Shown in pieces: positions 3,916 through 48,152 of a DNA stretch of 64,000 nucleotides. Below the pieces are notes generated by a model. The model saw only the letters and a list, made by a program, of their open reading frames with translations. It made no database searches and was not told the origin of the DNA. The position numbers were made by a program, and so were the translations under genes. Source of the stretch: a virus (lineage: Duplodnaviria > Caudoviricetes); IMG/VR virus record IMGVR_UViG_3300031853_000031, positions 4,579 to 68,578 of that record; one strand, given 5' to 3'. How positions within the stretch are numbered: position 1 is the stretch's first letter; every line of letters starts with the position of its first letter.

Positions 3916-4572
3916 ATGGCGATTATAAACACTCCGGTTTCTTCCGGAAATGTGAACTTAAAAGACGACACGCCTTCTTCTTTGACTGCTTCTTCAAGAA
4001 CATCTACTTCTGGTAGGGAATATCCGGTAGGTTTAGACGCCGATGAAAATTTATCCGTAAATGTACCTTGGCTTGATATTACTAAAGCTAGAGTTGATTC
4101 CGCATTAGGCGCTGGATCTGGGTCGTTGTTCTATAGACAAGATGGAAAATGGGCTTCTCCGGCTACTGGTGGAATTACTGTTAATACGTTGTATTTTTCA
4201 CGATATGGGCTAAACGTTAGTAGTGGTTGGAATCGCACTTATGTTTCGGCTGTTTCATGGTCAACTTATGCTTTACTTTTTATACATATTGCGATGTTAC
4301 ACCCGGCCGGCAGTAGTGGTTACACCAATTATGAAACTAAAGGAATATGGTATCCAAACCCGAGTATAACCATTCCATTATTTAACGGATTCAAAACTGA
4401 ATATGACTATTATTTTTATCCACTACGTAGAAATGTACCGGAGGGGTCATACAGCAGCCATAATCATCCTTTTGAATGTTTAAACCTTATATCTAGTGGA
4501 TGGGATACATTGGGGTTTTATGACGAAGGGTCTACTACAATAAAGCTTTTAGGCATTTACGGCATAAAGTAA
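3916..4572 (+). CDS. Hypothetical S/Y/G-rich protein, tail-fibre-like composition
   Basis: 218-aa ORF coupled to the lysin (TAATG); weak RBS. Confidence 0.6.
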   Translation: MAIINTPVSSGNVNLKDDTPSSLTASSRTSTSGREYPVGLDADENLSVNVPWLDITKARVDSALGAGSGSLFYRQDGKWASPATGGITVNTLYFSRYGLNVSSGWNRTYVSAVSWSTYALLFIHIAMLHPAGSSGYTNYETKGIWYPNPSITIPLFNGFKTEYDYYFYPLRRNVPEGSYSSHNHPFECLNLISSGWDTLGFYDEGSTTIKLLGIYGIK

Positions 4573-5300
4573 TGAAAACTTTCAATCTAACATCCAAGCA
4601 GATTCAAGGCATCGCTAACATCGTTGCCCATGAGCAAGGCTCTAAGGCTGGAAGATATGCAGAGGCTTCTCAGATTGCTAATCGGGCTGAGTTATATCAT
4701 GGTGGTGATCCGGTAAAGTGTGTCACTTCAGGCTGGTATGCTCACGGCAAATCAAGGTACGCGGCCGGTACGTCTAACGCTCAGGCTATTGCTATTGTTA
4801 AAGACGTATTCTTAAACGGTCACCGTACCTTGCCTATATATGTTGATGAGCATGACTGCATGAGTGATATCGACAAAGTAGTCAATAAGAAGGGACAGAA
4901 CATCAAGTGGAGCAAGTCCAAGTGGAAACCATTTGAGACACTAATCCACAACAAGATGAGTGCTAACTACTACTTTTATTCCTTCCCGGGCGGATGGAAA
5001 ACAGGAGTAGATCCCTTTGGCTACACCGGAAAGAAGAAGTCACCAAGTAACTCAAGCAGCTTCCATTATATTCTAGGAAGTGCACCAGCAGATGAGTGGG
5101 GTAGAATGATGCCAACATTGAAGCGAGGATCAAAAGGAAAAGCAGTCAAGATCTGGCAAACGATTCTTGGAATAAAAGTAACGGGTTCGTTTGGAGAAGG
5201 AACCGAGAAAGCAACGAAGGAATTCCAGAAGAATCACAAGTTGACCGCAGACGGCGTTGTGGGCGGTTTTACTTGGTCAGCCGGAATTGGCGAATTATAA
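4572..5300 (+). CDS. Endolysin: SleB/Hydrolase_2-like catalytic domain plus C-terminal PG_binding_1 domain
   Basis: C-terminus TLKRGSKGKAVKIWQTILG...G.FG..TEKATKEFQKNHKLTADGVVG is a classic PG-binding domain; N-terminus IANIVAHEQG...AEASQIANRA resembles the SleB catalytic Glu helix. Confidence 0.75.
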   Translation: MKTFNLTSKQIQGIANIVAHEQGSKAGRYAEASQIANRAELYHGGDPVKCVTSGWYAHGKSRYAAGTSNAQAIAIVKDVFLNGHRTLPIYVDEHDCMSDIDKVVNKKGQNIKWSKSKWKPFETLIHNKMSANYYFYSFPGGWKTGVDPFGYTGKKKSPSNSSSFHYILGSAPADEWGRMMPTLKRGSKGKAVKIWQTILGIKVTGSFGEGTEKATKEFQKNHKLTADGVVGGFTWSAGIGEL

Positions 5301-5323: not shown

Positions 5324-5500
5324 TTATTAGTACAAATTGGCTAAAAGAACCGCTTGATACCTAACTATTATCAATTGATGTAGAATTGAACAAGAGATGC
5401 AAGACGGTCGGCAACCACGCATTATAAGCGGTTCTTCAACGCCAATAGAAGTACTAAGCAGTACTAAAAAGCAGACTATTAGTACAGTATTAGTACTGCT
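5324..5500. other. Probable attP region
   Basis: Non-coding gap between convergent lysin and integrase; AGTAC(T/A) arm-type repeats (about 5329, 5450, 5460, 5481, 5492); 11-bp inverted repeat AAGAACCGCTT 5345-5355 / AAGCGGTTCTT 5426-5436. Confidence 0.65.
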
Positions 5501-6680
5501 TTATTTTACTCATTTCTTTAATCAACCAGGAAGTTGGTCGCTCTGTATAGACAGATTCTGTGATGTCGGCTTTTACGGAGTGGCCAACTATCCTCTTGAT
5601 TGCAAAGTCATCAACGCCATATTTCTTTGCAAGGGAGACGAAGTGTTTTCTGGCGTCATGAAGTCTATGGTCAGGACTTATCCCATAAGCCTTGGTAAAA
5701 GTTTCATACTTTGCTCTAAGAGTGTTGTAGGCATAGGGCTTGCCTTCGTTGGTGACCAGTAACTCATGCCCACTCGCAAGAAAAACTTCGATTATATTTT
5801 TTACCAATGGATGGATTGGGATGATGCGATCACGACCGGCTTCAGTCTTCATGCCGCCAACCATATAACCATCTTCTAAAAAGACGTTGCTTGACTTCAT
5901 AGTGATAACTTCTCTTGGTCTAAGACCGGAATAGCACTGCAGCAGGGTTATTCTTGCAAGAGGTTCATGCTGGTTCTCCCAAAGGATTCTCATCTCATCG
6001 TCGGTGTAGGTGATGTGGGGTTTCTGGGTCTTAACTTCGCCCTTTAACTTATATTCTCTTGCATAGTTCCGATCAGTTATCTCAAACTCAATGGCATAGT
6101 CAAAGAGCTGGTTAAAGAGTTTCTTTATATTTCTCTTAGTGTTCTCGGTTGGGGACTGCTTCTTACCTCGTCTTATAACATATCCTTCTTCCATGCAAAA
6201 CTTAATGTGCTTTATCCTTATCTCTCTAAAGGGTGTATCATAGATCAGATGACAGTAATGGTAAGCCGACTCCACATTCACAAGTGTAGCAGAGGTTATA
6301 TTTTTTGAGTGCCTTGCTATCCACTTGTCATAGACTTCCTTAAAGGTAAGGTCAGATGCTAACTCATACGGCGATTTGTTGTACTCCACAAGAGCCATAT
6401 AAGCATCGTTGTAAGTATCAAAGTAAGCCTGAGGTTTAAGGAGCTTACCAATAGGTCTGCCATTTTCATCCTTACCGACAGTAACCATAGCCCGGTAAGG
6501 TTTTCTAACTCTTCCTTTGATTTTTGTAATTCGTCCAAAACCGTTAGGAAGTCGTAATCGTTTTCTGGAAATTTTCCCGGGTGGGATTTTTGGAAATTGC
6601 TTTTGGGGATTACCACAATGGGGACAAGAGTAGGCTTTGTCTGAAACTTGTAATCCGCATTCTTGACATGTAATCAACAT
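5490..6680 (-). CDS. int: Tyrosine integrase with N-terminal zinc ribbon
   Basis: YSGLRPRE (Arg I), KTEAG (Lys), HDARKHF (HxxR) and IVGH...TESVY (His, Tyr nucleophile); RLPNGFG arm-binding domain; CQEC...CPHC ribbon; RBS AAGGAGG. Confidence 0.95.
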   Translation of the reverse strand: MLITCQECGLQVSDKAYSCPHCGNPQKQFPKIPPGKISRKRLRLPNGFGRITKIKGRVRKPYRAMVTVGKDENGRPIGKLLKPQAYFDTYNDAYMALVEYNKSPYELASDLTFKEVYDKWIARHSKNITSATLVNVESAYHYCHLIYDTPFREIRIKHIKFCMEEGYVIRRGKKQSPTENTKRNIKKLFNQLFDYAIEFEITDRNYAREYKLKGEVKTQKPHITYTDDEMRILWENQHEPLARITLLQCYSGLRPREVITMKSSNVFLEDGYMVGGMKTEAGRDRIIPIHPLVKNIIEVFLASGHELLVTNEGKPYAYNTLRAKYETFTKAYGISPDHRLHDARKHFVSLAKKYGVDDFAIKRIVGHSVKADITESVYTERPTSWLIKEMSKIKQY

Positions 6681-6701
6681 TTGTACTACCTCCTTGTTAG
6701 T

Positions 6702-6730
6702 ACTATAACAGGCGGACGCAAAAAAGACAA
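6702..6730 (-). promoter_or_regulatory. Sigma-A-type integrase promoter overlapping the divergent phage promoter
   Basis: Minus strand TTGTCT-17 bp-TATAGT with TG extended -10; overlaps the CGCAA promoter at 6717-6740. Confidence 0.65.
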
Positions 6731-6746
6731 GTGGTATAATGAAAGA

Positions 6747-6890
6747 AAGTATATAAGAACTTATAGTTAGGTAGAGAGAATCGAAAGACTATTCCGACGC
6801 GGGATGAGGTGAGAAACCTACGAACCGGTACCCGGACTTGAAATACAGACGGAAAGCTATAAGTTTCTAAGTATACAACTCTTGTCTTTT
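6747..6890 (+). ncRNA. Putative structured ncRNA 1 (about 140 nt)
   Basis: Downstream of promoter 6717; no ORF; closing stem AACTTATAGTT 6758-6768 / AGCTATAAGTT 6855-6865 extended by GTATA/TATAC; T-loop-like AGGTGAGAAACCT; ends at a T-run. Confidence 0.65.
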
Positions 6891-6924
6891 TTTTCGCAAA
6901 ATCTACATTGGGTATAATGAAAGG

Positions 6925-7146
6925 AAAGAAAAAACTGATGAAGCCTAAGTGCGTTTTAACGAACGCATACGGTGAGCACGCAGGCTATGTAATCTTTTAA
7001 GGCACTATCATACCGGGAGTGAGCAGAGGGTGATGTGTTATATGCGGCGGCGAGATTACATGAGCGTTAATCTCCAAAGGGGAAAGCCCTAAGTGACGTA
7101 AGTTGGTATCAGTAAATTCGCTTTCTAATCAACGCATTATTTTTTT
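6925..7146 (+). ncRNA. Putative structured ncRNA 2 (about 220 nt)
   Basis: Downstream of promoter 6895; no ORF; stems CTGATG/TATCAG, AGCCT/AGGCT, TGCGTT/AACGCA, ATGTAATCT/AGATTACAT and GGG-GAAA-GCCC; T-run at about 7141. Confidence 0.65.
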
Positions 7147-7148
7147 CA

Positions 7149-7177
7149 TAGACTACCAATGTAACATTTGGTATAAT
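7149..7177 (+). promoter_or_regulatory. Sigma-A-type promoter for the 7200 ORF
   Basis: TAGACT-17 bp-TATAAT with TG extension; the spacer CCAATGTAACATTTGG is near-palindromic. Confidence 0.6.
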
Positions 7178-7199
7178 TTTTCCAAAGGAGGTATTTGAC

Positions 7200-7565
7200 A
7201 TGGGTTTAGTTAATATGAAATGCCCTAATTGTGGAGCGGAGTTGAAGATCGATAAGGATAGGGAAAATGTTTACTGCGAGTATTGCGGTTCTCATGTCTA
7301 TTCTCTAATCAAGACAAAAATCGTAGAAGAACATGTTACTAGGGATGAAACTCAGATAAAGAAAATGGAGATAGAAAAACAAGAACGGGAGAAAATGGAG
7401 AAGTACACAGCCCCATTTCTTACCGGTGATCTCGGCGCAATGCTAATCCTTTTTGGGATACTAGGGGAGTATTCTAATTGGTCTCTATTCACAAAAATAA
7501 TATGTATGATACTAGGCGTTGGCTTACTAATCCTAGCACTGATATTATATTTGAAAAAGAAATAA
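7200..7565 (+). CDS. Zinc-ribbon membrane protein (moron or superinfection-exclusion candidate)
   Basis: CPNCG...CEYCG ribbon; two C-terminal hydrophobic helices; RBS AAAGGAGG. Confidence 0.75.
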   Translation: MGLVNMKCPNCGAELKIDKDRENVYCEYCGSHVYSLIKTKIVEEHVTRDETQIKKMEIEKQEREKMEKYTAPFLTGDLGAMLILFGILGEYSNWSLFTKIICMILGVGLLILALILYLKKK

Positions 7566-7599
7566 TTTTTCGCAAAATCTACAGCGCTTATAATGAAAG

Positions 7600-7806
7600 G
7601 AGGTAGACCGCAAAAGATAAGACGGCATTAGTCATATCTATATACATGTCTATTTCACATCTAAAAGGGAAGTGATGTAATACCAAGCACCTCAAAGGTG
7701 GAAGGGTTGCAGTTTTCGACCAATCGTTCAATGAACGTAATGCGGAAGAGCTGTCCGGAACTGGAGTGTAAGTTGTTTTGGTGGAGCAGCTTCCTCTTTT
7801 CTTTTT
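7600..7806 (+). ncRNA. Putative structured ncRNA 3 (about 200 nt)
   Basis: Downstream of promoter 7571; SD-like AAAGGAGG with no following start codon; hairpins CACCT/AGGTG, GGTTG/CGACC, CGTTC/GAACG and GAAGAGCTG/CAGCTTC; T-run at the end. Confidence 0.5.
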
Positions 7807-7884
7807 GCCTGAACGAAGTGAAGACAAGCGAGCATCGCAAAATTTACACTCCTTATAGTAGAAAGATTAAGGAGGTATATTACC

Positions 7885-8073
7885 ATGAAAAAAGCTATAA
7901 CGATTATATTAAGTGTCATATTCGTATTAATGATTTGTGTTTTTGGAATGACTATTTTTAGCTTTATGGCTATTAATAGAGCGAGTGACGAAATCACAAC
8001 TACCATTGAGCGAATTGAAAACGAAAATGAAAAAGTCGATTTAGATTTAGAAAACTTGGTAAATGAATTCTGA
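7885..8073 (+). CDS. Small N-terminal TM protein
   Basis: Own promoter (7836), RBS AAGGAGG and downstream hairpin repeat. Confidence 0.75.
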   Translation: MKKAITIILSVIFVLMICVFGMTIFSFMAINRASDEITTTIERIENENEKVDLDLENLVNEF

Positions 8074-8178
8074 TTTTTGTCCTGAGCAAGACTTTAAACT
8101 GCTCATATTTTTTTCGCAAAATTTACAACTCCTATAATGAAAGAAGGAACTATAGATTTATTATAGGAGGACAAAACA

Positions 8179-8376
8179 ATGTTAAGAACATTAAATAATA
8201 TAGATGTAACAGAAATTGTTTGGAAACTATTAAAAGAGGTTTTCACCTTTGTAGTAATCTTTTGCTGCGTATGGGTAGCAGTAAAGGTGTCTACATTGGT
8301 AGACTTCAAAGTGTTTGCGTTAGTAATGTTAGGAATTATTTATGTGTTAATGTGTAAATTATCTAAAGATTCGTAG
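8179..8376 (+). CDS. Small two-TM protein
   Basis: Own promoter (8115); RBS AGGAGG. Confidence 0.75.
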   Translation: MLRTLNNIDVTEIVWKLLKEVFTFVVIFCCVWVAVKVSTLVDFKVFALVMLGIIYVLMCKLSKDS

Positions 8377-8510
8377 TTCCTCTTTCAAATCCTGAGCAAG
8401 ATTTAAAACTGCTCATTTTCTTTTTGCCATGATGGGGGATCGAATAAGGCACGCAGGTGACGTTATCTAATTGTAAACTTTCACTTATCAAACTATAAGG
8501 AGGTTTCACA

Positions 8511-8717
8511 ATGATAGCTTTTAGAAAAGGTCACATGCCAGTGTCTGTCGCCGCTAAAATATTCGGTAAGGATGCGAGTTGGGTTAGAGCCGGTATAACG
8601 GAAGGTTGGCTACCCATCGGCATCGTAACAGGTCAGGGTAAGAGGTGTAACTATTATATTTCACCAAAGAAGGTCTATGAGCTTACAGGTTACTTATGGG
8701 AGGGTGAGGAGATATGA
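8511..8717 (+). CDS. HTH DNA-binding protein (Xis-like)
   Basis: PVSVAAKIFGKDASWVRAG HTH; YYISPKK wing; RBS AAGGAGG. Confidence 0.7.
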   Translation: MIAFRKGHMPVSVAAKIFGKDASWVRAGITEGWLPIGIVTGQGKRCNYYISPKKVYELTGYLWEGEEI

Positions 8718-9097
8718 GTACGGTAATAAGAAACGAAGTATCCAAGTCCAACCCCTACTATCTCCCAAAGCACCGTTATCTGGAGCTTAAGCACTTCTGC
8801 CTGCAGTATCCTGATTGGAGAAAGGAATACGGAGCTATTATATTTGAGAAAGATGATGACTTTGACCCGACCGGCAAGAAGGCTGTAAGGCTTAAGATGC
8901 TGACGGATAGGATGGCTATGGTGGAAGAGACTGCTAAAGAGGTAGATCCAGTATTAGCAGAGTATCTCTTTTTTGCTGTAACGGGAGATAAGTCCTATAC
9001 ATACCTTAGAACAGCTATGAATATACCCTGTGGCAAGAATCTATACTACGACCTTTACAGGAAGTTCTGGTGGCTACTTAGTAAGAAACGGGAGTAG
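8714..9097 (+). CDS. RinA/ArpU-like transcriptional regulator
   Basis: ELKHFCLQYPDW; C-terminal HTH-like SYTYL...IPCGKNLYYDLYRKFWWLL. Confidence 0.55.
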   Translation: MSTVIRNEVSKSNPYYLPKHRYLELKHFCLQYPDWRKEYGAIIFEKDDDFDPTGKKAVRLKMLTDRMAMVEETAKEVDPVLAEYLFFAVTGDKSYTYLRTAMNIPCGKNLYYDLYRKFWWLLSKKRE

Positions 9098-9157
9098 ACG
9101 CAAGAAAAGCAGTGGTTATAATGAACCACTTAACTTGTTAAAAGAAAGGAGAATATT

Positions 9158-9367
9158 ATGAGCAAGTTAAAAAGAGAGACGTTAATGACATTAGTTGATG
9201 AGATAGGAGCGTATAATGATGCGGTATTGAAACTCTTCAAATGCATGGAAGAGGAAAAGATCGGCAAAGATAAACCACTGCTCCTACTCAAACAGTTGGA
9301 GGTCAGTGTACACGGTCTCAACCTTAACGAAGCCGTATCCAAAGTTTTGGACGAATTAAGTGAGTAA
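9158..9367 (+). CDS. Hypothetical early protein
   Basis: Promoter 9099; RBS GAAAGGAG; GAAA-loop hairpin follows. Confidence 0.7.
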   Translation: MSKLKRETLMTLVDEIGAYNDAVLKLFKCMEEEKIGKDKPLLLLKQLEVSVHGLNLNEAVSKVLDELSE

Positions 9368-9475
9368 ACTTATAAGGGCTCTGCCAGAAATGGCATCCCT
9401 TATAAACTTTTCGCAAAAATTACACCTCTTATAATAGAATCAAGAGGAATATTTTATTATAGGAGGTATGTTATC

Positions 9476-9691
9476 ATGATTAAATATTATATTACACTGG
9501 CTGTAGCAGGTATTTGTAACGCTATGGGCATTCTGATTGGAATGTTCTGTAGATTTCTTACCAATAACGGGATTAATATCCCTGAGGTAGTAACCATGCA
9601 GAATGTGTCCAAGGCATGTTTCCTGGTGTTCATTATCATGTTGGTCATTATGAATATTATGTTAATTATCGAAAGAAAACACAATAAGTAA
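9476..9691 (+). CDS. Small two-TM protein
   Basis: Promoter 9412; RBS AGGAGG; hairpin repeat at 9703. Confidence 0.75.
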   Translation: MIKYYITLAVAGICNAMGILIGMFCRFLTNNGINIPEVVTMQNVSKACFLVFIIMLVIMNIMLIIERKHNK

Positions 9692-9771
9692 ACTCTGATC
9701 AAGTCCTGAGCAAGACTTTAAACTGCTCATTATTTTTTTTTCGCAATAATTACATTCCTTATAATGAAGGA

Positions 9772-10215
9772 ATAATGTAAGGTTTGAGAGACCAACCTTA
9801 AAGATGGATTAAGCCATTGATAAATGGTAGCGTAGCCGTATCGCTAGGCTTGCTTAAATATCCTGGGCGTTAGGTCATTATTTCTACAAAATTATGTAGA
9901 CAAGTTATCACACGGACACGTGGTGGTGGCTACCTAATAATCGTTGATGAAGGGTTATTAGAGTGACGCAGATGATAATCGTAAGTCGGGCAGGCAATAA
10001 ACTGAAAAGGTGTTATTGTTTAAACTACAGATTTTGGGAACAGATATTATGTATGGCTGTTACGATAGTTAGGTGATCGAAAGTGAGCATGAACTCTTAT
10101 GAGGTGAGAAACCTGAACTGTGTGGCTATAAATCGAGCCATTGACGCCAGTATCTCTGAAGGCTGGTGGGCAGCGTTTGATGCGTGCGGTCCTAAGCATA
10201 GTATTTATTTTTTTT
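9772..10215 (+). ncRNA. Putative large structured ncRNA 4 (about 440 nt)
   Basis: Downstream of promoter 9742; no ORF of 60 aa or more; many stems (TAAGGTT/AACCTTA, GTAGCC/GGCTAC, TCTACA/TGTAGA, CTAATAAT/GTTATTAG, GGCAATAA/TTATTGTT, TGGCT/AGCCA, GCCAG/CTGGT); shares a module with ncRNA 1; ends at a T-run. Confidence 0.7.
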
Positions 10216-10235: not shown

Positions 10236-10505
10236 GTGTTAACTAATATTATATTTTTGGCTGTTGGAGTTTTTGTAACGGTGTGGGCTTTTATCATACT
10301 AGACAGACTTACCGGCATTAGGAACAAACCCGTAGGTGAGCTTCAGGTGGATACAGAAAAGGAGATAGTCCAGTTAGTTTTCTATTCTACTCAGGACCTG
10401 CATCTCTCTATCCATGATAAGACCAGAGTGACCTTTGACGTGGTCCATAAGAGTCTGGATTTTAAGATCCCGGAAGAGTTCACGCAAGGAAAACAGAGCC
10501 TATAA
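10236..10505 (+). CDS. N-terminal TM hypothetical protein
   Basis: RBS AAAGGAGG; GTG start. Confidence 0.7.
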   Translation: MLTNIIFLAVGVFVTVWAFIILDRLTGIRNKPVGELQVDTEKEIVQLVFYSTQDLHLSIHDKTRVTFDVVHKSLDFKIPEEFTQGKQSL

Positions 10506-11467: not shown

Positions 11468-11680
11468 ATGAACCTAAAGTCGGAAGTAGCTTTGTACGAT
11501 TCCATGGTTGAAACTGAAGATTTGATTGAAAATATTCAAGGGAGGATTTATGGTTTTACAACAATCCCCCTTGAGGAAAGAGATGAGCTTTCAAGGAAAC
11601 TGTATGAGATTCGTATGAAGTTAGTAGATTATTCTAATGCATTAGGTGAGTCGTTAGTTATTATGGAAGCTTTTGATTAA
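11468..11680 (+). CDS. Acidic helical hypothetical protein
   Basis: Degenerate promoter 11420; RBS AAAGGAGG. Confidence 0.7.
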   Translation: MNLKSEVALYDSMVETEDLIENIQGRIYGFTTIPLEERDELSRKLYEIRMKLVDYSNALGESLVIMEAFD

Positions 11681-11729
11681 GGTAATAGTCCTGAGCAAGA
11701 CTTTAAACTGCTCATTATATTTTTCGCTT

Positions 11730-12035
11730 ATGACTTACAAAATCTACAAATGTGACCATTCTGTGTATTCTACATGTACATTATATTTTCATAAAGGTAA
11801 AGGACTAGCCATCATCCAGCAACGCTTTAACAAGAGGCTTAAGGTAACGTTCTGGTCGTCTGTTGACAAGGATTTAGCTGCAGAGATCGCTTATCATGAG
11901 AAGTTCTATGAATATTTCGTTGCTGAAGCAGGCTTCGCTAATGATGGATTATATCCTACCAAGACTATTAGACAGGTTATGTGGGCTCTTAAGATGAAAC
12001 CACTAAAGAAACATCCTTGGGAGACTCGTTGGTGA
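11730..12035 (+). CDS. Hypothetical protein
   Basis: First in-frame ATG after the hairpin repeat; no clear RBS or promoter. Confidence 0.5.
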   Translation: MTYKIYKCDHSVYSTCTLYFHKGKGLAIIQQRFNKRLKVTFWSSVDKDLAAEIAYHEKFYEYFVAEAGFANDGLYPTKTIRQVMWALKMKPLKKHPWETRW

Positions 12036-15789: not shown

Positions 15790-15971
15790 ATAGACAAGGT
15801 TTAAAGCCTTACTATCCTCGTTATTGGCCTGACTGGTTTAGTTACCACTATGCTTGTTGGGCCAATAATCATCGGGGATGGCAAAAGGCAAAGAAGAAAG
15901 AACGACGCATGGCTAAGAGGAGGCTTAAGCGGGAATTAAGAAAGGAGATAGAGAATGAACGTATATTTTGA
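15786..15971 (+). CDS. Small basic hypothetical protein
   Basis: Coupled ORF; aromatic N-terminus and K/R-rich C-terminus. Confidence 0.55.
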   Translation: MNRQGLKPYYPRYWPDWFSYHYACWANNHRGWQKAKKKERRMAKRRLKRELRKEIENERIF

Positions 15972-16605
15972 TACGGAATTTACAGGGCTTGTGCCTAACA
16001 CTACGCTGATCAGTATTGGTATGGTAGCGGAAACCGGTGAGAAGTTCTACGCCGAGTTTACCGATTATGATAAGGATTTGGTAACAGACTGGATTCAGAA
16101 AAACGTTGTTGATAAACTTGTGCTGAAACCAAACGAATCAATAATTACTAAAGACTGTTGGATGTTTTCCGGTTCGACAAATTATATTTGGAACAGGTTA
16201 CTTATTTGGTTCGAAAAAATCAGTGGAGCACAGTATGAAACCTTTCAGGATAACGCAAAAGCGTATATCCACCCTGAGCATCTAGGAGAACAAATTCAGC
16301 TAGTTTCAGACGTCTGCCATTACGACATGTACCTGCTTCAAAACCAGGTATTTGGCGGAGCTTTTAATATGCCGGTTAACATCAACCCGGTCTGCTATGA
16401 CATTTGTCAGGATATATGTGCTAGAGAAGTAGCTGGAGACGATTTAAAATGGTACCCCAACATGAACGGTATGGCAGATGCTTTCTATGTGTCAAGAGAG
16501 ATGTTCTGTAAGAAAGTAGCGGGCGATCTTCCTGAAGGTAAGAGGCACAACGCGCTTTATGACGCTAAAGTAATCAAAATGATATATGAAGGGATGAGAA
16601 AATAA
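15955..16605 (+). CDS. DEDDh 3'-5' exo(ribo)nuclease
   Basis: YFDTEFTGL (ExoI), SDVCHYD (ExoII), HNALYDAK (ExoIII). Confidence 0.85.
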   Translation: MNVYFDTEFTGLVPNTTLISIGMVAETGEKFYAEFTDYDKDLVTDWIQKNVVDKLVLKPNESIITKDCWMFSGSTNYIWNRLLIWFEKISGAQYETFQDNAKAYIHPEHLGEQIQLVSDVCHYDMYLLQNQVFGGAFNMPVNINPVCYDICQDICAREVAGDDLKWYPNMNGMADAFYVSREMFCKKVAGDLPEGKRHNALYDAKVIKMIYEGMRK

Positions 16606-21239: not shown

Positions 21240-22073
21240 ATGAACCTTGTAAAAATATTAAAGCCTTTAGAAAAAACCGCTTACCAGTTGCTTAGATCTG
21301 TTAAGGCTAACAGAACTACGCTCTACGCCATTGGAGCGACAGTTGGAGTGGTTGGGACGGCTGCGGCTAGTGCTAAGGCGGCTGTTAAGACCAAGGAGTA
21401 TCAGGAGGAGTATGCTGATGCGAGCTTTGCTGAGAAGGCGAAATTTATTGGTGGACTTTGGGTGATGCCGGTAGTAGTAGGAGGCGTTACTATCTTCTGT
21501 ATCTGGAGAGGACATAAGATCCACCTTGAGAAGGAAGCAAGTCTGGCTGCTATGAGTGCTTTCTGGAAGACCAAGTACGATGAACTTGATAAGAAAATCT
21601 CTGAGAAACTCTCTGAAGAAGAGTACAAAGAGGTTAAGGATGAGATATTCAAAGAGAACGTAGAGAAGGCAGCTAATGAACGGGGAGTGAATCTTGCAGC
21701 TCTGTCTAAAGGCCAGTTCTGGGTGTACGACGCTATAACAGGGCAGTTCATGAAGGTGACTGCAGACCAGATGACCTGGGCTACATATGCTCTTAATAAG
21801 CGTTTCATGGAAGGACAGGTCGTGCAGTATAACTGGTTCTTAGGACTGCTTGGAGGTAGACCGAGTGAACTTGCTAAAGACGTTGGTTGGGATCCTAACA
21901 ACGAGACGTTCTTTGAAATGTTGGACTACAATAATGGGTTCGGCATCGCACCGTGGCTTGATGTAGATGCTGACCATCACGCCGACATCAATATGGATCC
22001 TGTTAACTCTGAGGGCTTGCCTGTAGCGCAACTGTTCTACAAGTATGACCCCTTCTATCTATATGAAAAATGA
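21240..22073 (+). CDS. Paralogue family member 1 (DUF6353-like)
   Basis: AIGATVGVVGTAAASAKAA hydrophobic helix, second TM, C-terminal YNWFLGLLG...VGW; family name from recall. Confidence 0.6.
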   Translation: MNLVKILKPLEKTAYQLLRSVKANRTTLYAIGATVGVVGTAAASAKAAVKTKEYQEEYADASFAEKAKFIGGLWVMPVVVGGVTIFCIWRGHKIHLEKEASLAAMSAFWKTKYDELDKKISEKLSEEEYKEVKDEIFKENVEKAANERGVNLAALSKGQFWVYDAITGQFMKVTADQMTWATYALNKRFMEGQVVQYNWFLGLLGGRPSELAKDVGWDPNNETFFEMLDYNNGFGIAPWLDVDADHHADINMDPVNSEGLPVAQLFYKYDPFYLYEK

Positions 22074-22855: not shown

Positions 22856-23686
22856 TTGGAGGCTGTTATGAAACTACCGATTAAAGCTGTTAAGACAGCG
22901 CTGGTTAAGTATACGAAGATGATCCCTAAACTGATGGTCAAGGAGAGTCCTACTATACTTGCTGGGATAGGTGTTGTAGGCGTAGTTAGTGTTGCTGTAA
23001 CGACGCATACGGCGACCAAGAAGGCTGTGGAAAAGATGGAGGAAGTACGCAGCGAGGATGATTACGTGGAGCCCGAAACAAAGGTTGATGCTGCTATTGA
23101 GGAGGTAAAGGAGACATGGCAGTATTATATTCCTGTTGGAGCTATTATGGTGGTTGCTATCGTAGCTATCGTTCAGGGGAATAGGATAAGTTTGAGGCGT
23201 ATATCCATTCTTACTGATGCTTACAGGATGAGCGAGAAACTGAGGAAAGAGTATCAGACCAAGGTTAAGGAGGTCCTTGGAGAGAATAAGGAAGCCAAAA
23301 TCCAGAATGAGATAGCTCAGGACAGGCTTGATGAAGACCCTGTTGATGAGAAGTATGTCTATGCGACAGGGCATGGTAATAGTTTGATCAAGGACTGCTT
23401 TTCTGGAAGATACTTCTATAGCAATCCGGAGTTCATAAGACAAGTTAAGAATCAGTTGGATAGAAAACTCGTTATTGAAGATTATATTTCTGTTAACGAG
23501 CTTTTCTATAAACTAGATTTGGAGATGTTAGATGCTGCAGCGGACTATGGTTGGAGGGTAGACCACTGTGACATGAAGGATCTTACAGACATTAGACTAA
23601 TACCAGGTACAGCTTCTGATGGAAGGCCGTGTCATGTGCTGACGTATGAAGTTGAGCTGGGTTTTGATGTGTATGAGGATAGTTAG
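22856..23686 (+). CDS. Paralogue family member 2 (DUF6353-like); start probably ATG 22868
   Basis: SPTILAGIGVVGVV, YIPVGAI, ISVNELFYKLD...YGW. Confidence 0.7.
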   Translation: MEAVMKLPIKAVKTALVKYTKMIPKLMVKESPTILAGIGVVGVVSVAVTTHTATKKAVEKMEEVRSEDDYVEPETKVDAAIEEVKETWQYYIPVGAIMVVAIVAIVQGNRISLRRISILTDAYRMSEKLRKEYQTKVKEVLGENKEAKIQNEIAQDRLDEDPVDEKYVYATGHGNSLIKDCFSGRYFYSNPEFIRQVKNQLDRKLVIEDYISVNELFYKLDLEMLDAAADYGWRVDHCDMKDLTDIRLIPGTASDGRPCHVLTYEVELGFDVYEDS

Positions 23687-25041: not shown

Positions 25042-25324
25042 TCATTACAAAAAACAGTGCTCAATTGAGTGCATCGAGGCTATGGAAATAGCTTTTGGGG
25101 CTGAAGGAGTGGTCAATTTCTGCCTTTGTAACGCCTTTAAGTACTTATGGAGGCATACAAACAAGGCTGGATACGAGGATTTAGAGAAGGCATCCTGGTA
25201 CGTTGACGCCGCAAGGGAGAAAATGCCCTTGATGGGTGATAAGAGAGGGCTTTATGAAGCTAAATTACTCTCTTTAAGTGAAGTTATCGCGACTTATGTA
25301 TTATATTTTGGAGGAAAATCATGA
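25004..25324 (+). CDS. DUF3310-like (SaV-like) protein
   Basis: INPDHY...ECIEAM...FCLCNAFKYLWR...KAGYEDLEKASWY. Confidence 0.8.
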   Translation: MGKLVGKDAINPDHYKKQCSIECIEAMEIAFGAEGVVNFCLCNAFKYLWRHTNKAGYEDLEKASWYVDAAREKMPLMGDKRGLYEAKLLSLSEVIATYVLYFGGKS

Positions 25325-26331
25325 AATTATTAAGCGTTGTTGCATCTAAAATGACAAATTCTATGGGTAAAGTTGGTTTAAAACTCACTAAGGCAGCTCC
25401 TGATATTCTCGTTGCTGCAGGTATTGGTGGACTTGTTGGAGCTACTGTTTGGCTGATTAAGAACGAGGAAAAGCGTAAGGAAATTCTCGAAGACTTTGCT
25501 GAAGAGAGAGAAAACATCGAGGCCGACAAGGAGATTTTAGAAGAGATGGCTGAATCTGGCAATACCGAGGCCGTAGAATGCCCTTCTGACGCACCAGAAG
25601 CCTCATATAGCGGTTTAGTGGTAAAATCCTATGTAGAGGTCGCTGGAAGGCTTGCAGGGCTGTATGCGGCTCCTGTGGCTTTATACGGGGTCTCTCTGGC
25701 TTGTATCTTAAAGAGCCATTATATTCTTAAAGGGAGAGTTGCAGGTCTTGCTGCTGCTTATGAGTGTCTGGACAGAGCCTATAAGAGGTACCGTGGGAAC
25801 GTCGTTGAGAGATATGGTGAAGAGGTCGACAAGGATATGGCTTACGGCAGAAAGAAGGAGACTATCATTGAGAGCCATCCAGATCCTGAGACAGGCGAGG
25901 AGATTGTTGAGACCAGCGAGAGAATGACTTACAACGTTCCTCTTGGTGGATCTGAGTTCGGTAGATGGTTTGAGCAGGGTGGTAGTTGGGAGTTTGAGAA
26001 GAACAATCCCATTTACAATATGACTTACGTTGTTGGAGTACAGGCTCAGCTTGATAACCTGCTGCACGCAAGAGGGCACGTATTCCTTAACGAGGCATAT
26101 GACGCTTTGGGATTTGAAAGAACGCCTGAGGGAGCTGTTGTAGGTTGGATCCTGGGAGCCGGGGACGATTGTATTGACTTCGGTATCAACGACAAGGTGG
26201 TTTGGGTTAAGGACCGCTGGCATGGCGACGGAGACGAGCTTACTGTTGTAGGAAGAGACGATTATGACGGCTTCAGACAGGGATTCTGGCTTGATTTCAA
26301 CCACGATGGAGTTATATTTGACAAGATTTGA
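25321..26331 (+). CDS. Paralogue family member 3 (DUF6353-like)
   Basis: APDILVAAGIGGLV, LYAAPVAL, RVAGLAAAY, GHVFLNEAYDALG...VGW. Confidence 0.75.
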   Translation: MKLLSVVASKMTNSMGKVGLKLTKAAPDILVAAGIGGLVGATVWLIKNEEKRKEILEDFAEERENIEADKEILEEMAESGNTEAVECPSDAPEASYSGLVVKSYVEVAGRLAGLYAAPVALYGVSLACILKSHYILKGRVAGLAAAYECLDRAYKRYRGNVVERYGEEVDKDMAYGRKKETIIESHPDPETGEEIVETSERMTYNVPLGGSEFGRWFEQGGSWEFEKNNPIYNMTYVVGVQAQLDNLLHARGHVFLNEAYDALGFERTPEGAVVGWILGAGDDCIDFGINDKVVWVKDRWHGDGDELTVVGRDDYDGFRQGFWLDFNHDGVIFDKI

Positions 26332-45004: not shown

Positions 45005-46282
45005 ATGCCTAGTTTTGGATCCAGGCTACAACATGCTTGGAATGCTTTCTTCAACAAAGACCCCACACCGCAAGCCCGGGTTGAGTATGGCTACTCGTCA
45101 TATCACAGACCCGACAGATATCAGATGTCACCAAGTAACAAGCGGTCTATCGTGTCAGCGATTTACAATCGTATAGCCGTAGACGCTTCCATGGTGGCAA
45201 TCGAACATGTAGATACAGATCCGGATCAAAATCATCGCTTTGTAGGAGTACGTAAGTCTGCTCTTAACGACTTGCTTACTGTCAGAGCAAATATCGACCA
45301 GACTGGCAAGGACTTTATTAGAGACATTATTATCTCTATGTTTGACGAAGGCTGTATTGCTTTGGTTATCACTCAGGCTACAGATGACCCACGACTTACT
45401 AACATCTACGACATTGGTTCTGCCAGAGTTGCAAAGATTGTCCAGTGGTATCCGGAACATGTAAAAGTACAAGTATACAACGAAAGAACCGGCCATCGAG
45501 AAGAACGTATCTATCCCAAGGAATGTACCGCCATTATCGAGAACCCGTTCTTTCTAATCATGAACGAGCCTAACTCAGTTCTCCAGCAGCTTATCAGGAA
45601 GATGAACTTGCTGGATTATGTGGAGTCAAGGGCTAATTATGGGAAGTTGGATTTGATTATTCAGCTTCCTTATTTAGTTAAGACGCCTAAGAAACAGGCT
45701 CAGGCTGAACGACGTCGTAAAGACATCGAACAACAGTTATCCAGTTCCGATTACGGAATTGCATATACAGATGGTACGGAGAGAATCACTCAGCTTAACC
45801 GTCCTGTCGAAAACAAGATTTGGGAAGAAGTGAAAGACTTAACGAGCATGTTATACAACCAGTTAGGAATGCACCAATCCATCTTTGACGGCACGGCGAA
45901 CGAGCAGACGATGATTAACTACTATAACCGAACCATCGACCCCGTGTTAGCCGCTATTGCTGATGCTATCAACATGAAGTGGCTGACCAAAACTGCACGT
46001 ACGCAAGGGCAGACCATCCGGTATTACAGGAGTCCCTTTAGGCTTACACCTGCTAAGGAGATTGCTAACATCGGAGGAGCTCTCATACAAAGCGAGGTCG
46101 TATCGTCCAACGAAGTGCGTGCTGAGCTTGGTTACGTACCGTCTGATGATCCTAGAGCTGATCAGCTTCTTAACAAGAACATCAACACGGTTGACCAATC
46201 TACGCAGGCGGCAGAGAATCCTCCGTCTGTGGAGGACTCTGTAAAAGTAAAAGGAGGAACAGATCAAAATGGCGAAACCTGA
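45005..46282 (+). CDS. Portal protein (HK97-like)
   Basis: After TerL; SIVSAIYNRIAVD, IFDGTANE, NEVRAELG motifs. Confidence 0.9.
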   Translation: MPSFGSRLQHAWNAFFNKDPTPQARVEYGYSSYHRPDRYQMSPSNKRSIVSAIYNRIAVDASMVAIEHVDTDPDQNHRFVGVRKSALNDLLTVRANIDQTGKDFIRDIIISMFDEGCIALVITQATDDPRLTNIYDIGSARVAKIVQWYPEHVKVQVYNERTGHREERIYPKECTAIIENPFFLIMNEPNSVLQQLIRKMNLLDYVESRANYGKLDLIIQLPYLVKTPKKQAQAERRRKDIEQQLSSSDYGIAYTDGTERITQLNRPVENKIWEEVKDLTSMLYNQLGMHQSIFDGTANEQTMINYYNRTIDPVLAAIADAINMKWLTKTARTQGQTIRYYRSPFRLTPAKEIANIGGALIQSEVVSSNEVRAELGYVPSDDPRADQLLNKNINTVDQSTQAAENPPSVEDSVKVKGGTDQNGET

Positions 46283-48152
46283 ATTACAGTGTGATTTCTC
46301 CGGCTGGGTTACGAAAAACGACGTTAAATGTGCAGACGGACGAGTCATCAAACATGGAGCCTTCGCTGACAATGAGGGTGAAACTGTCCCGTTAATGTGG
46401 GGACACAATCACTCCGACCCTTCTAATGTTCTGGGAAAGATGCTTCTTAGAAACTTAGATGAGGGGACATACGGCTATGGCTTCCTTAATCATAGTGCCA
46501 AAGCTGATGAGGCAAGAGAGCTTCTTAAGCATGGCGATATTACCAGAATGTCTATATGGGCAGGGGAACTTGTTCATCAGGACTGTAACGTTGTTCATGG
46601 CCGAATTAAAGAAGTAAGCCTTGTCGTTGGTGCCGCTAATCCCGGAGCCAGGATTGAAAATGTCTATCTGGCTCACAGCGATGGTGAAGGTGAAGTATTA
46701 GACGATGAAGCTGTAATCTTCTTTGATGATGGCATTGATTTCTTCCACTCTGACGAACCTGAAGAAGGTAAAAAAGAGGAAAAGAAGGAAGAGAAGGAAG
46801 AAGGGAAAGAAGAAGGCGAAATGGATCCGGAAAAGATCTATAAAACTTTAAACGACGATCAGAAGAGATTGTTCACTTTTGTAGTAAATGAAGCCCTCGA
46901 ATCCGGCAAAGCCGACGAGGAAGAAAAAGAAGTTAAACATTCGGAAGGAGAAACTGAAATGAAATACAATACTTTTGATACTGGTGCAGAGCAGGCTAGA
47001 GGTAACTTCATCTCTCACGCTGACCAGGAAATGATTATGGAAATGGCTAAGGACCGTGGTGTAGGTTCTTTCCAGAACGCATTTAAGATTTATGCCGAGC
47101 AGAACGAACTGATGCATTCCGACGCAGCTGACGCTGTAGGTGGTTTTACTACATCACCAACAGAGAACCATTTCGGACTTGAAGCTGTATTCCCGGAATA
47201 CAAGGAAGTATCCGGCAGCAAGACCCCGGAGTTAATCACTTCTGATCAGGGCTGGATCACAACAGTCATGAACAAGGTTCATAAGAGCCCCATCTCCAGA
47301 ATCAGAACCAGCCATCTCGACATTCGTGGACTGGACGAGCTTCGTGCAAAGGGTTATCAGAAGGGCCGGAAGAAATCCCTGTCTGGCAACTTCGAGTTTG
47401 CTCGTAGAACAACCGATCCTCAGACTATCTATGTTCGTAACTCCCTGCACAGGGATGATATCATCGATATCACAGACTTTGACTATGTAAACTACCTCTT
47501 TAACATCGACAAGATGATGCTGAACGAAGAGCTGGCTACAGCTATCATGATTGGTGATGGCCGTGCTCAATCGTCCGATGACAAGATCTTCGAGACACAT
47601 ATCAGATCTATCTGGCATGATGACGACCTGTACACCATACATGTAGATCTTGATACTACAGATCCCGAGATTCAGGGCAGCGAGACTGAAGGATACTTCG
47701 GTGAGAACTACATCATGGCTGAATCCATGATCCAGACCGTTCTCTATGCACGTGAGAACTTCAAAGGCACAGGTACTCCTGATATGTTCATTACTCCTCA
47801 TATGCTCAACGTAATGCTTCTGTCCAGAGACCGCAACGGCCGTAGAATCTTCTCCAGCAAGAACGAACTGGCTGCAGCTCTTAACGTTGGTGCTATCCAT
47901 ACAGCCGAACAGTTTGCTGACAAGACTCGTACCGCTACTATCAACGGAACCGAGAAGACCAAGAAGCTCATCGCTATCATCTGCAACCTGGCTGACTACT
48001 CTCTGGGTCATACAAAGGGTGGCGAAGTAACACACTTTACACAGTTTGATATCGACTTCAACCAGCAGAAGAGCCTGCTTGAGACCAGATGCTCCGGTGC
48101 TCTTACAAAGCTGTGGTCTGCTATCGCTATCGAGGAGGATGTAACTGCCTAA
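46269..48152 (+). CDS. Fused prohead protease (HK97-type S78) / scaffold / major capsid protein
   Basis: VPLMWGH (His), RMSIW (Ser), EVSLV...ANPGARI; acidic linker; capsid-like C-terminus FDIDFNQQK.L.ETRCSGAL. Confidence 0.9.
   Translation: MAKPELQCDFSGWVTKNDVKCADGRVIKHGAFADNEGETVPLMWGHNHSDPSNVLGKMLLRNLDEGTYGYGFLNHSAKADEARELLKHGDITRMSIWAGELVHQDCNVVHGRIKEVSLVVGAANPGARIENVYLAHSDGEGEVLDDEAVIFFDDGIDFFHSDEPEEGKKEEKKEEKEEGKEEGEMDPEKIYKTLNDDQKRLFTFVVNEALESGKADEEEKEVKHSEGETEMKYNTFDTGAEQARGNFISHADQEMIMEMAKDRGVGSFQNAFKIYAEQNELMHSDAADAVGGFTTSPTENHFGLEAVFPEYKEVSGSKTPELITSDQGWITTVMNKVHKSPISRIRTSHLDIRGLDELRAKGYQKGRKKSLSGNFEFARRTTDPQTIYVRNSLHRDDIIDITDFDYVNYLFNIDKMMLNEELATAIMIGDGRAQSSDDKIFETHIRSIWHDDDLYTIHVDLDTTDPEIQGSETEGYFGENYIMAESMIQTVLYARENFKGTGTPDMFITPHMLNVMLLSRDRNGRRIFSSKNELAAALNVGAIHTAEQFADKTRTATINGTEKTKKLIAIICNLADYSLGHTKGGEVTHFTQFDIDFNQQKSLLETRCSGALTKLWSAIAIEEDVTA

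Follow-up and report, generated by a model that had tools for sequence, protein, structure and literature searches.

GlmY/GlmZ, the EutX-type riboswitch small RNA and CsrB are paralogous mimic or sponge/leader pairs, and the flavin mononucleotide (FMN) and cobalamin riboswitch aptamers, which a P1 stem closes, contain T-loop hairpins resembling GGGUGAAAUUCCC. In a T-loop, positions 1 and 5 form a cross-loop pair, which is followed by two bulged bases (PMC4919913). In three dimensions this pair is reverse-Hoogsteen, and a base intercalates between positions 4 and 5. Bacterial Y RNAs (YrlA) bear a transfer RNA (tRNA)-like module, and a protein-tethering or decoy role is established for them (PMC4201824). 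Here we describe two non-coding RNAs (ncRNAs), ncRNA 1 and ncRNA 4, from the early region of a temperate, uncultivated phage. Both lie in a stretch of 64,000 nucleotides (the window), bases 4579-68578 of the IMG/VR record IMGVR_UViG_3300031853_000031, a phage genome that is complete at 68.6 kb and bears terminal repeats. The stand-alone ncRNA 1 shares a series of sequence blocks, including a T-loop-type hairpin, with a domain inside the longer ncRNA 4.

Reading the sequence directly bore out the arrangement proposed in the initial annotation of this DNA. The blocks ATAGTTAGGT (6763 in ncRNA 1, 10065 in ncRNA 4), ATCGAAAG (6780/10076) and ATGAGGTGAGAAACCT (6804/10099) are followed by GAAC (6822/10115) and GCTATA (6856/10125), their order is the same in both RNAs, and AUAGUU can pair with AGCUAU in ncRNA 1 and with GGCUAU in ncRNA 4. 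The identical blocks are 10, 8, 16, 4 and 6 bases long; the linkers between them differ, measuring (ncRNA 1 versus ncRNA 4) 7 versus 1 nt, 16 versus 15 nt with no similarity, 2 versus 0 and about 30 versus 6. Local alignment of the two RNAs scored 55.5, 6 standard deviations above 1000 dinucleotide shuffles (27.0 +/- 4.6, maximum 45.5). When ncRNA 1 was compared with the rest of the window on both strands through collinear chains of exact matches of at least 7 bases, the chain to ncRNA 4 (10 + 8 + 16 + 7 = 41 bases) was the longest, the next best reaching 22. GGTGAGAAACC has exactly two occurrences in the complete genome. The copy in ncRNA 4 is a shortened, lineage-specific paralog of the 5' two-thirds of ncRNA 1, and it scores 19 bits (E 0.29) with model R1, the covariance model of ncRNA 1.

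We conclude that ncRNA 1 is a real structured RNA gene, predicted to be independently transcribed from its own promoter up to a U8 tract (6887-6894) that abuts the next CGCAA promoter. Among 56 related-phage loci gathered via the neighboring 127-aa protein, one from another IMG/VR phage (L025, whose 127-aa protein is 43% identical) contains an ortholog of ncRNA 1 (L025:6442-6587; 68.6% identity, E 7e-11), likewise flanked by a CGCAA-type promoter and a U-run. In the alignment of the two sequences all 24 of 24 predicted pairs are kept and five are changed on both sides; when the structure was slid by 1-3 columns as a control, 0-1 double-changed pairs and 33-50% pairing were obtained. The compensatory changes fall in the terminal stem, whose outer and inner segments together hold four, and in the hairpin AGGU-GAGAA-ACCU, which becomes GGGU-GAGAA-ACCC in L025 (A-U to G-C). 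Six of the pairs are G-U in one or both sequences, and the fold is hence specific to the plus strand.

The ends of ncRNA 1 are paired in a 17-bp two-part stem just before the U-run. Enclosed by this stem are the GAAA element CGAAAG, a variable hairpin, the 4-bp hairpin, a further hairpin and the conserved 12-mer UUGAAAUACAGA. The pairs of the local 4-bp hairpin have ensemble probabilities of 0.93-0.98 in ncRNA 1 and 0.86-0.87 in L025. The distance from CGAAAG to the GGUGAGAAACC hairpin is 19-20 nt in ncRNA 1, in ncRNA 4 and in L025, where the CGAAAG site forms a clean ACCC-GAAA-GGGU hairpin. Several other roles for ncRNA 1 were considered and rejected. Its short open reading frames (ORFs) are not conserved in L025, which speaks against a coding function; complements of the 12-mer are not enriched in either phage, as a trans-antisense seed would require; and an antisense to the integrase leader or to attP arm sites fits neither the position of the ortholog, which is not beside an integrase, nor the strand specificity of the fold. 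Just after the ortholog, L025:6600-6745 is a second ORF-free unit with its own promoter, whose 5' end GAAGAGAAAG pairs with CUUUCUCUU before a U-run. Paired transcript ends look like a general design of the early cassettes.

The ortholog also shows how the shared blocks evolve. By hand count it matches the three main blocks at about 5/10, 6/8 and 12/16 positions, whereas within the phage studied here they are letter-identical, which suggests either concerted evolution or a phage-specific common partner. Since the linkers between the blocks are unrelated, a simple recent duplication is argued against. The pattern looks like a functional core with swappable peripheral hairpins, and it suggests either that one partner recognizes the blocks in both copies or that gene conversion has acted in patches.

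The longer RNA, ncRNA 4, has a fold z-score of -2.9, and a terminal stem closes its 3' domain (about 10036-10212), which contains the copy. After the U8 tract (10208-10215) come AAAGGAGG, a ribosome-binding site (RBS), and a GTG at 10236, with no promoter between them; ncRNA 4 is thus also the leader of an 89-aa ORF. Its layout is module, U-run, RBS and ORF, but no ortholog was found in which a riboswitch or attenuator leader, conserved across genomes, could be recognized; ncRNA 1 has no downstream ORF. From the sequence layout, the 89-aa ORF is predicted to be expressed only via read-through from the ncRNA 4 promoter; it belongs to no Pfam or PHROG family. Just 5' of the 3' domain, UUAAACUACAGA (10020-10031) shares 10/12 bases with the 12-mer of ncRNA 1; it precedes the module in ncRNA 4 rather than following it, and such a match is expected about 0.04 times in ncRNA 4 by chance. 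The predicted fold of the copy differs from that of ncRNA 1: AUAGUUAGGU, in the first block, pairs almost perfectly with ACCUGAACUGU, and enforcing the local hairpin costs +5.9 kcal/mol in a 78-nt domain and +4.6 kcal/mol in a 181-nt domain. The two RNAs therefore share sequence, while energy models predict different folds for them; the discrepancy may be genuine, may point to switching between folds, or may arise from the limits of energy modeling.

The initial annotation had aligned GGUGAGAAACC position by position with the tRNA T-arm GGUUCGAAUCC. The likeness extends to 8/11 positions, including the closing G-C pair and the T-loop U1 and A5, and not to every position. By sequence, the loop fits the T-loop pentanucleotide U-(U/G)-N-R-A, reading U-G-A-G-A and then A-A, and is invariant in ncRNA 1, ncRNA 4 and L025. 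The G-C-closed heptaloop with U1 and A5 thus resembles a tRNA T-arm (RF00005; PMC4919913), and in ncRNA 1 the hairpin is conserved and covarying. It differs from a T-arm in that only positions 1, 4 and 5 of UGAGAAA agree with U-U-C-R-A-N-N (the loop has GA in place of UC), the stem has 4 pairs and not 5, no D-loop partner was identified, and the hairpin, instead of adjoining the closing stem's 3' strand, is separated from it by about 36 nt in ncRNA 1 and 10 nt in ncRNA 4. This T-loop-type hairpin can equally well be read as a GAGAA pentaloop closed by U-A.

Two of the described systems resemble the module in architecture. As in YrlA (PMC4201824), a T-arm-like element lies within a longer RNA closed by a long terminal stem; however, the YrlA T-arm is canonical, neither copy has an Rfam Y RNA match, and no Ro60 (TROVE) gene was found among the phage proteins scanned. 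As in the riboswitch aptamers, a hairpin of the GGGUGAAAUUCCC type lies within a stem-closed RNA, and the copy in ncRNA 4 is upstream of a U-run and an ORF; here the differences are that no Rfam riboswitch was matched at E<=10 and that the flanking resemblance of ncRNA 1 is not kept in L025.

The initial annotation had further called the shared domain a conserved RNA module. For ncRNA 1 this stands to the extent that a single other phage keeps it, with compensatory changes; having no ortholog, the copy in ncRNA 4 cannot be called a conserved module. A covariance-model search for conservation in relatives went against the claim, the module being missing from about 60 related phages. Model R1 found nothing convincing in the other loci of the 56 around the 127-aa gene, nothing in 50 complete records of relatives, and nothing in the closest relatives identified via the integrase (81-54% identity) or the 127-aa protein (69-52%); in these closest relatives the genes on either side and the terminator-promoter units recur, but the ncRNAs do not. 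A homolog of ncRNA 4 or of its copy was found in none of the related loci and collections searched. Exact and gapped patterns returned only the L025 contig and chance matches (L002, L115) from IMG/VR. In JGI metagenomes they gave 21 matches, about the chance number by a rough estimate, none of which fits model R1, and Rfam assigns no family to the sites of the three module-like ones (L068, L069, L077). The 12 matches in GTDB genomes fall in unrelated phyla and are attributed to chance, and blastn against phage GenBank gave no match. Rfam 15 yielded 0 matches in the window at the gathering threshold; at E<=10, searches of 3.7 kb and of the 161- and 191-nt copies returned only chance small nucleolar RNA, microRNA and long non-coding RNA matches (E 1.7-6). 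A K-turn, considered after the C/D-box-like matches, was rejected, as the required G-A/A-G pairs beside the stem are not conserved in L025. We conclude that ncRNA 1 is a new, rare, structured small RNA matching no described family; in kind, it is another structured RNA of a phage early region with a T-loop-type hairpin.

The proposed tRNA-likeness found no support in homology searches. The Rfam tRNA cloverleaf (RF00005) had no match at E<=10 in the 3.7-kb, 161-nt and 191-nt searches, and ARAGORN called 0 genes in the window. The related phages differ in this respect: in about 50/65 related loci a tRNA-shaped RNA lies behind the CGCGA/CGCAA promoter type. These RNAs begin right after the promoter, and the 5' end pairs with the bases before the U-run to form an acceptor-like stem. 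Canonical D- and T-arms occur together with a shortened "anticodon" arm, whose loop measures about 3-7 nt and can be GAAA; canonical T-arms number 30 on the early-gene strand versus 2 on the other. The cloverleaf is supported by pairing in 85% of cells (42-57% when slid) and by 15 pairs with double changes. Rfam tRNA scores them at 35-56 bits, and ARAGORN reports them as "tRNA-???" with a 2-base anticodon. A covariance model of this family (R2), which as a positive control gave 52 matches in the 65 related loci, had no match in ncRNA 1 or ncRNA 4 at E<=10 when run over the whole window with filters off; its best window match (6615-6697, minus strand) is spurious, and the whole genome contains 0 matches at E<=1. 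Thus the complete genome studied here is without the tRNA-shaped RNA that nearly all relatives carry, while L025 carries both a tRNA-shaped RNA and the ortholog of ncRNA 1.

The tRNA-shaped RNAs and the RNAs described here nevertheless share a cassette. Like them, ncRNA 1 has a CGCAA/CGCGA-type promoter, paired 5' and 3' ends, a U-run and an early position; unlike them, neither ncRNA 1 nor the module in ncRNA 4 is a clear cloverleaf or is found by R2. Many relatives carry the tRNA-shaped RNA in the interval from the 127-aa gene to the homolog of 11673-12035, which is occupied here by ncRNA 4, and it is often directly before an RBS and an ORF, as is ncRNA 4. In the relative L101, a longer RNA-like element of about 130 nt (L101:3850-4030) lies beside the integrase, which is the place of ncRNA 1 in the window; it includes the perfect T-arm GGUGGUUCGAGUCCACC and is closed by the stem GGAGAA/UUCUCC, yet is called by neither ARAGORN nor Rfam. 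Homology of ncRNA 1 to this element was considered and rejected, since only the 3' trailer and terminator align, and weakly (66% over 110 nt).

We tentatively favor the explanation that the free ncRNA 1 and the copy embedded in the ncRNA 4 leader share one partner, and we infer a mechanism of the following kind. The same protein or RNA would read the GAAA element and the T-loop-type hairpin, the latter being the likeliest contact surface, and would thereby keep both copies alike. The two copies would compete for this partner by a sponge-and-target or mimic logic, and ncRNA 1 would in this way tune transcription or processing past the ncRNA 4 U-run into the 89-aa ORF. GlmY/GlmZ, EutX and CsrB offer a parallel, in that a single recognition module is present in two RNAs, of which one is free and the other is joined to a regulated target; the analogy is purely functional, as none of these has a sequence or structural relation to ncRNA 1 or ncRNA 4. 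Since the genome is without the usual anticodon-defective tRNA-shaped RNA, the module may serve a related purpose, though no homology to tRNA is detectable in it.

Several observations weigh against a shared partner. There is only one ortholog of ncRNA 1 and none of the copy in ncRNA 4, which weakens the case for selection on this copy, and the absence of the module from about 60 related phages marks it as an accessory element. The local hairpin has an ensemble probability of 0.0 in ncRNA 4 (ViennaRNA). The paired strands AUAGUU/GCUAU are letter-identical, as expected from recent common descent without any functional need. Finally, a scan of 20 early and middle proteins revealed no Ro60, RtcB or ligase gene.

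The possible, though somewhat doubtful, alternative that fares best is that the copy in ncRNA 4 is a functionless leftover of partial duplication or gene conversion, with its hairpins replaced and no common fold, in an early region strung together from recombining cassettes, in which promoter and terminator units recur. It would explain why the blocks are 100% identical while the true ortholog differs in them, and why identity extends to paired strands, where complementarity would suffice; the many repeats of the terminator-promoter units, the missing ortholog of the copy and its predicted fold, unlike that of ncRNA 1, are all consistent with it. What it does not account for is that five blocks are identical when every linker is unrelated in sequence and length, for the linkers would still be alike after a recent duplication, and the blocks would have decayed after an old one. 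The copy, moreover, preserves the CGAAAG-to-hairpin spacing.

The different folds predicted for the two RNAs could also mean that the module is a cis-acting switch, in which ACCU (6816/10111) has two alternative partners, the adjacent AGGU and the upstream UAGGU, and so toggles the downstream U-run terminator; the copy in ncRNA 4 would regulate the 89-aa ORF, and ncRNA 1 would be a terminated orphan version. Both pairings are available in both copies, the long-range form is the minimum free energy structure in ncRNA 4 (-19.0 versus -13.1 kcal/mol) and the local form is favored in ncRNA 1, and the U-run of ncRNA 4 comes immediately before the RBS and ORF. We nevertheless consider a switch unlikely: the long-range pairing of UAGGU in the first block with ACCUA is lost in L025 (CAUGU versus ACCCG), where it is the local hairpin that covaries; ncRNA 1 is left with nothing to regulate, since a separate promoter serves the next unit; and no riboswitch family matches.

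A tRNA mimic or decoy, as envisaged in the initial annotation, appears improbable. On this account the T-loop-like hairpin on a closed stem would imitate the tRNA elbow or T-arm and soak up a host tRNA-binding factor, for example a tRNA-cleaving defense nuclease or a processing enzyme. The heptaloop with its G-C closure, U1 and A5 (the motif of PMC4919913) agrees with this, as does the absence from this phage of the tRNA-shaped RNA with an abnormal anticodon loop that is present in about 50/65 related loci; in addition, the stretch AUAGUUAGGUAGAG of ncRNA 1 resembles the D-arm AUAGCUCAAUUGGUAGAG of those RNAs. Against it stand the lack of a cloverleaf and of any match to Rfam tRNA, ARAGORN or R2, the departures from a T-arm in stem length (4 pairs, not 5), at loop positions 2-3 (GA, not UC) and in the gap that separates the hairpin from the closing stem's 3' strand, and the lack of a known defense or counter-defense context. 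For this role and for the other one put forward in the initial annotation, a docking unit for RNA assembly, the circumstantial support is limited to the genuine tRNA-shaped RNAs that relatives have in this type of cassette. Joined to the shared-partner explanation, the idea takes a more specific and quite unlikely form, in which the usual tRNA-shaped early RNA has been replaced here by a T-loop-bearing module whose free and leader copies compete for a factor that reads the tRNA elbow, controlling early read-through or blunting a tRNA-directed host response.

The GAGAA loop closed by U-A is compatible with a GNRNA pentaloop, as in boxB. An antitermination element like HK022 put or the lambda boxB-type GNRA pentaloop, which would modify its polymerase past early terminators, is very improbable, for although the region is dense in terminators, and both of the similar copies are flanked by an early promoter and a terminator, nearly every unit has its own promoter, so that read-through is not needed, no N-like or Nus-related element was seen, and relatives with the same cassette layout are without the module.

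Table 1. Features of the ncRNA 1 and ncRNA 4 region and tRNA-shaped RNAs of related phages; positions are those of the window unless a locus is named
Feature	Position	Strand	Remarks
ncRNA 1	6747..6894	+	stand-alone structured small RNA; 5' end approximate; about 145 nt
Terminal closing stem of ncRNA 1, 5' strands	6749..6767	+	outer 6749-6754, inner 6757-6767 (including ATAGTT)
Closing stem of ncRNA 1, 3' strands	6856..6876	+	6871-6876 and 6856-6866 (including GCTATA)
CGAAAG (GNRA-type GAAA)	6782..6787	+	20 nt upstream of GGUGAGAAACC
Hairpin AGGU-GAGAA-ACCU	6807..6819	+	alternatively GG[UGAGAAA]CC T-loop-type heptaloop; covariation
12-mer UUGAAAUACAGA	6838..6849	+	identical in ncRNA 1 and L025; missing from the ncRNA 4 module
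ncRNA 4	9772..10215	+	about 440 nt without ORF; three predicted domains
Copy of ncRNA 1 core in 3' domain of ncRNA 4	10065..10130	+	identical blocks
AGGU-GAGAA-ACCU in ncRNA 4	10102..10114	+	same 13 bases as ncRNA 1
89-aa ORF	10236..10505	+	next promoter 10483
Promoter-like site of ncRNA 1, CGCAA-N13-TATAAT	6717..6740	+	one of 18 sites
Promoter-like site of ncRNA 4	9742..9765	+	from the site count
Endolysin gene	4572-5300		neighbor of ncRNA 1 region
Tyrosine integrase gene	5490-6680	-	
tRNA-shaped RNAs of related phages	L032:2990-3062, L003:10135-10208, L005:9274-9352, L009:7879-7949, L025:9311-9379, L101:5810-5878 and 6192-6259		about 45 more loci

Past the integrase gene, the early region continues as a series of very small plus-strand units. 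The promoter-like motif CGCAA-N13-TATAAT occurs 18 times in the window (5775-33808), always on the plus strand, against a chance expectation of 1.07. Its spacing is shorter than a normal -35/-10 promoter permits. The base right after TATAAT is often the first of the RNA-closing stem, and the true start site may therefore be unusually close. A terminator hairpin, CCTGAGCAAGAyTTTAAACTGCTCA, with a T-run is fused to the next promoter as a repeated unit (8075-8140, 8390-8425, 9700-9765); the same fused unit was also found in the relatives L060, L101 and L103. Further downstream, the early gene 15955-16605 has a match to an Rv2179c-like 3'-5' exoribonuclease domain (E 2e-6, marginally above the cut-off used by Pfam), whose product is, on this similarity, a possible candidate for an enzyme trimming U-tailed RNAs. 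The middle region contains three DUF6353 paralogs (21240-22073, 22856-23686 and 25321-26331), and L101, too, has one DUF6353 protein, downstream of its tRNA-shaped RNAs. Two 10-mers of ncRNA 1, ATTCCGACGC and CGGACTTGAA, recur in order within the ORF 46269-48152 (about 47073-47211), probably by chance.

Phage early regions are emerging as rich in small folded RNAs without an assigned use. The present case offers an RNA of about 145 nt with covariation, a second, leader-attached copy in the same genome and a clear family context, in which relatives have tRNA-shaped RNAs unable to decode, behind a non-canonical promoter. If the two copies share a partner, they would be a compact case of phage RNA mimicry regulating the phage itself or its host, and a pointer to the role of the commoner tRNA-shaped RNAs in this phage group; if they do not, they would be a record of how a phage ncRNA gene is assembled from recombining pieces.

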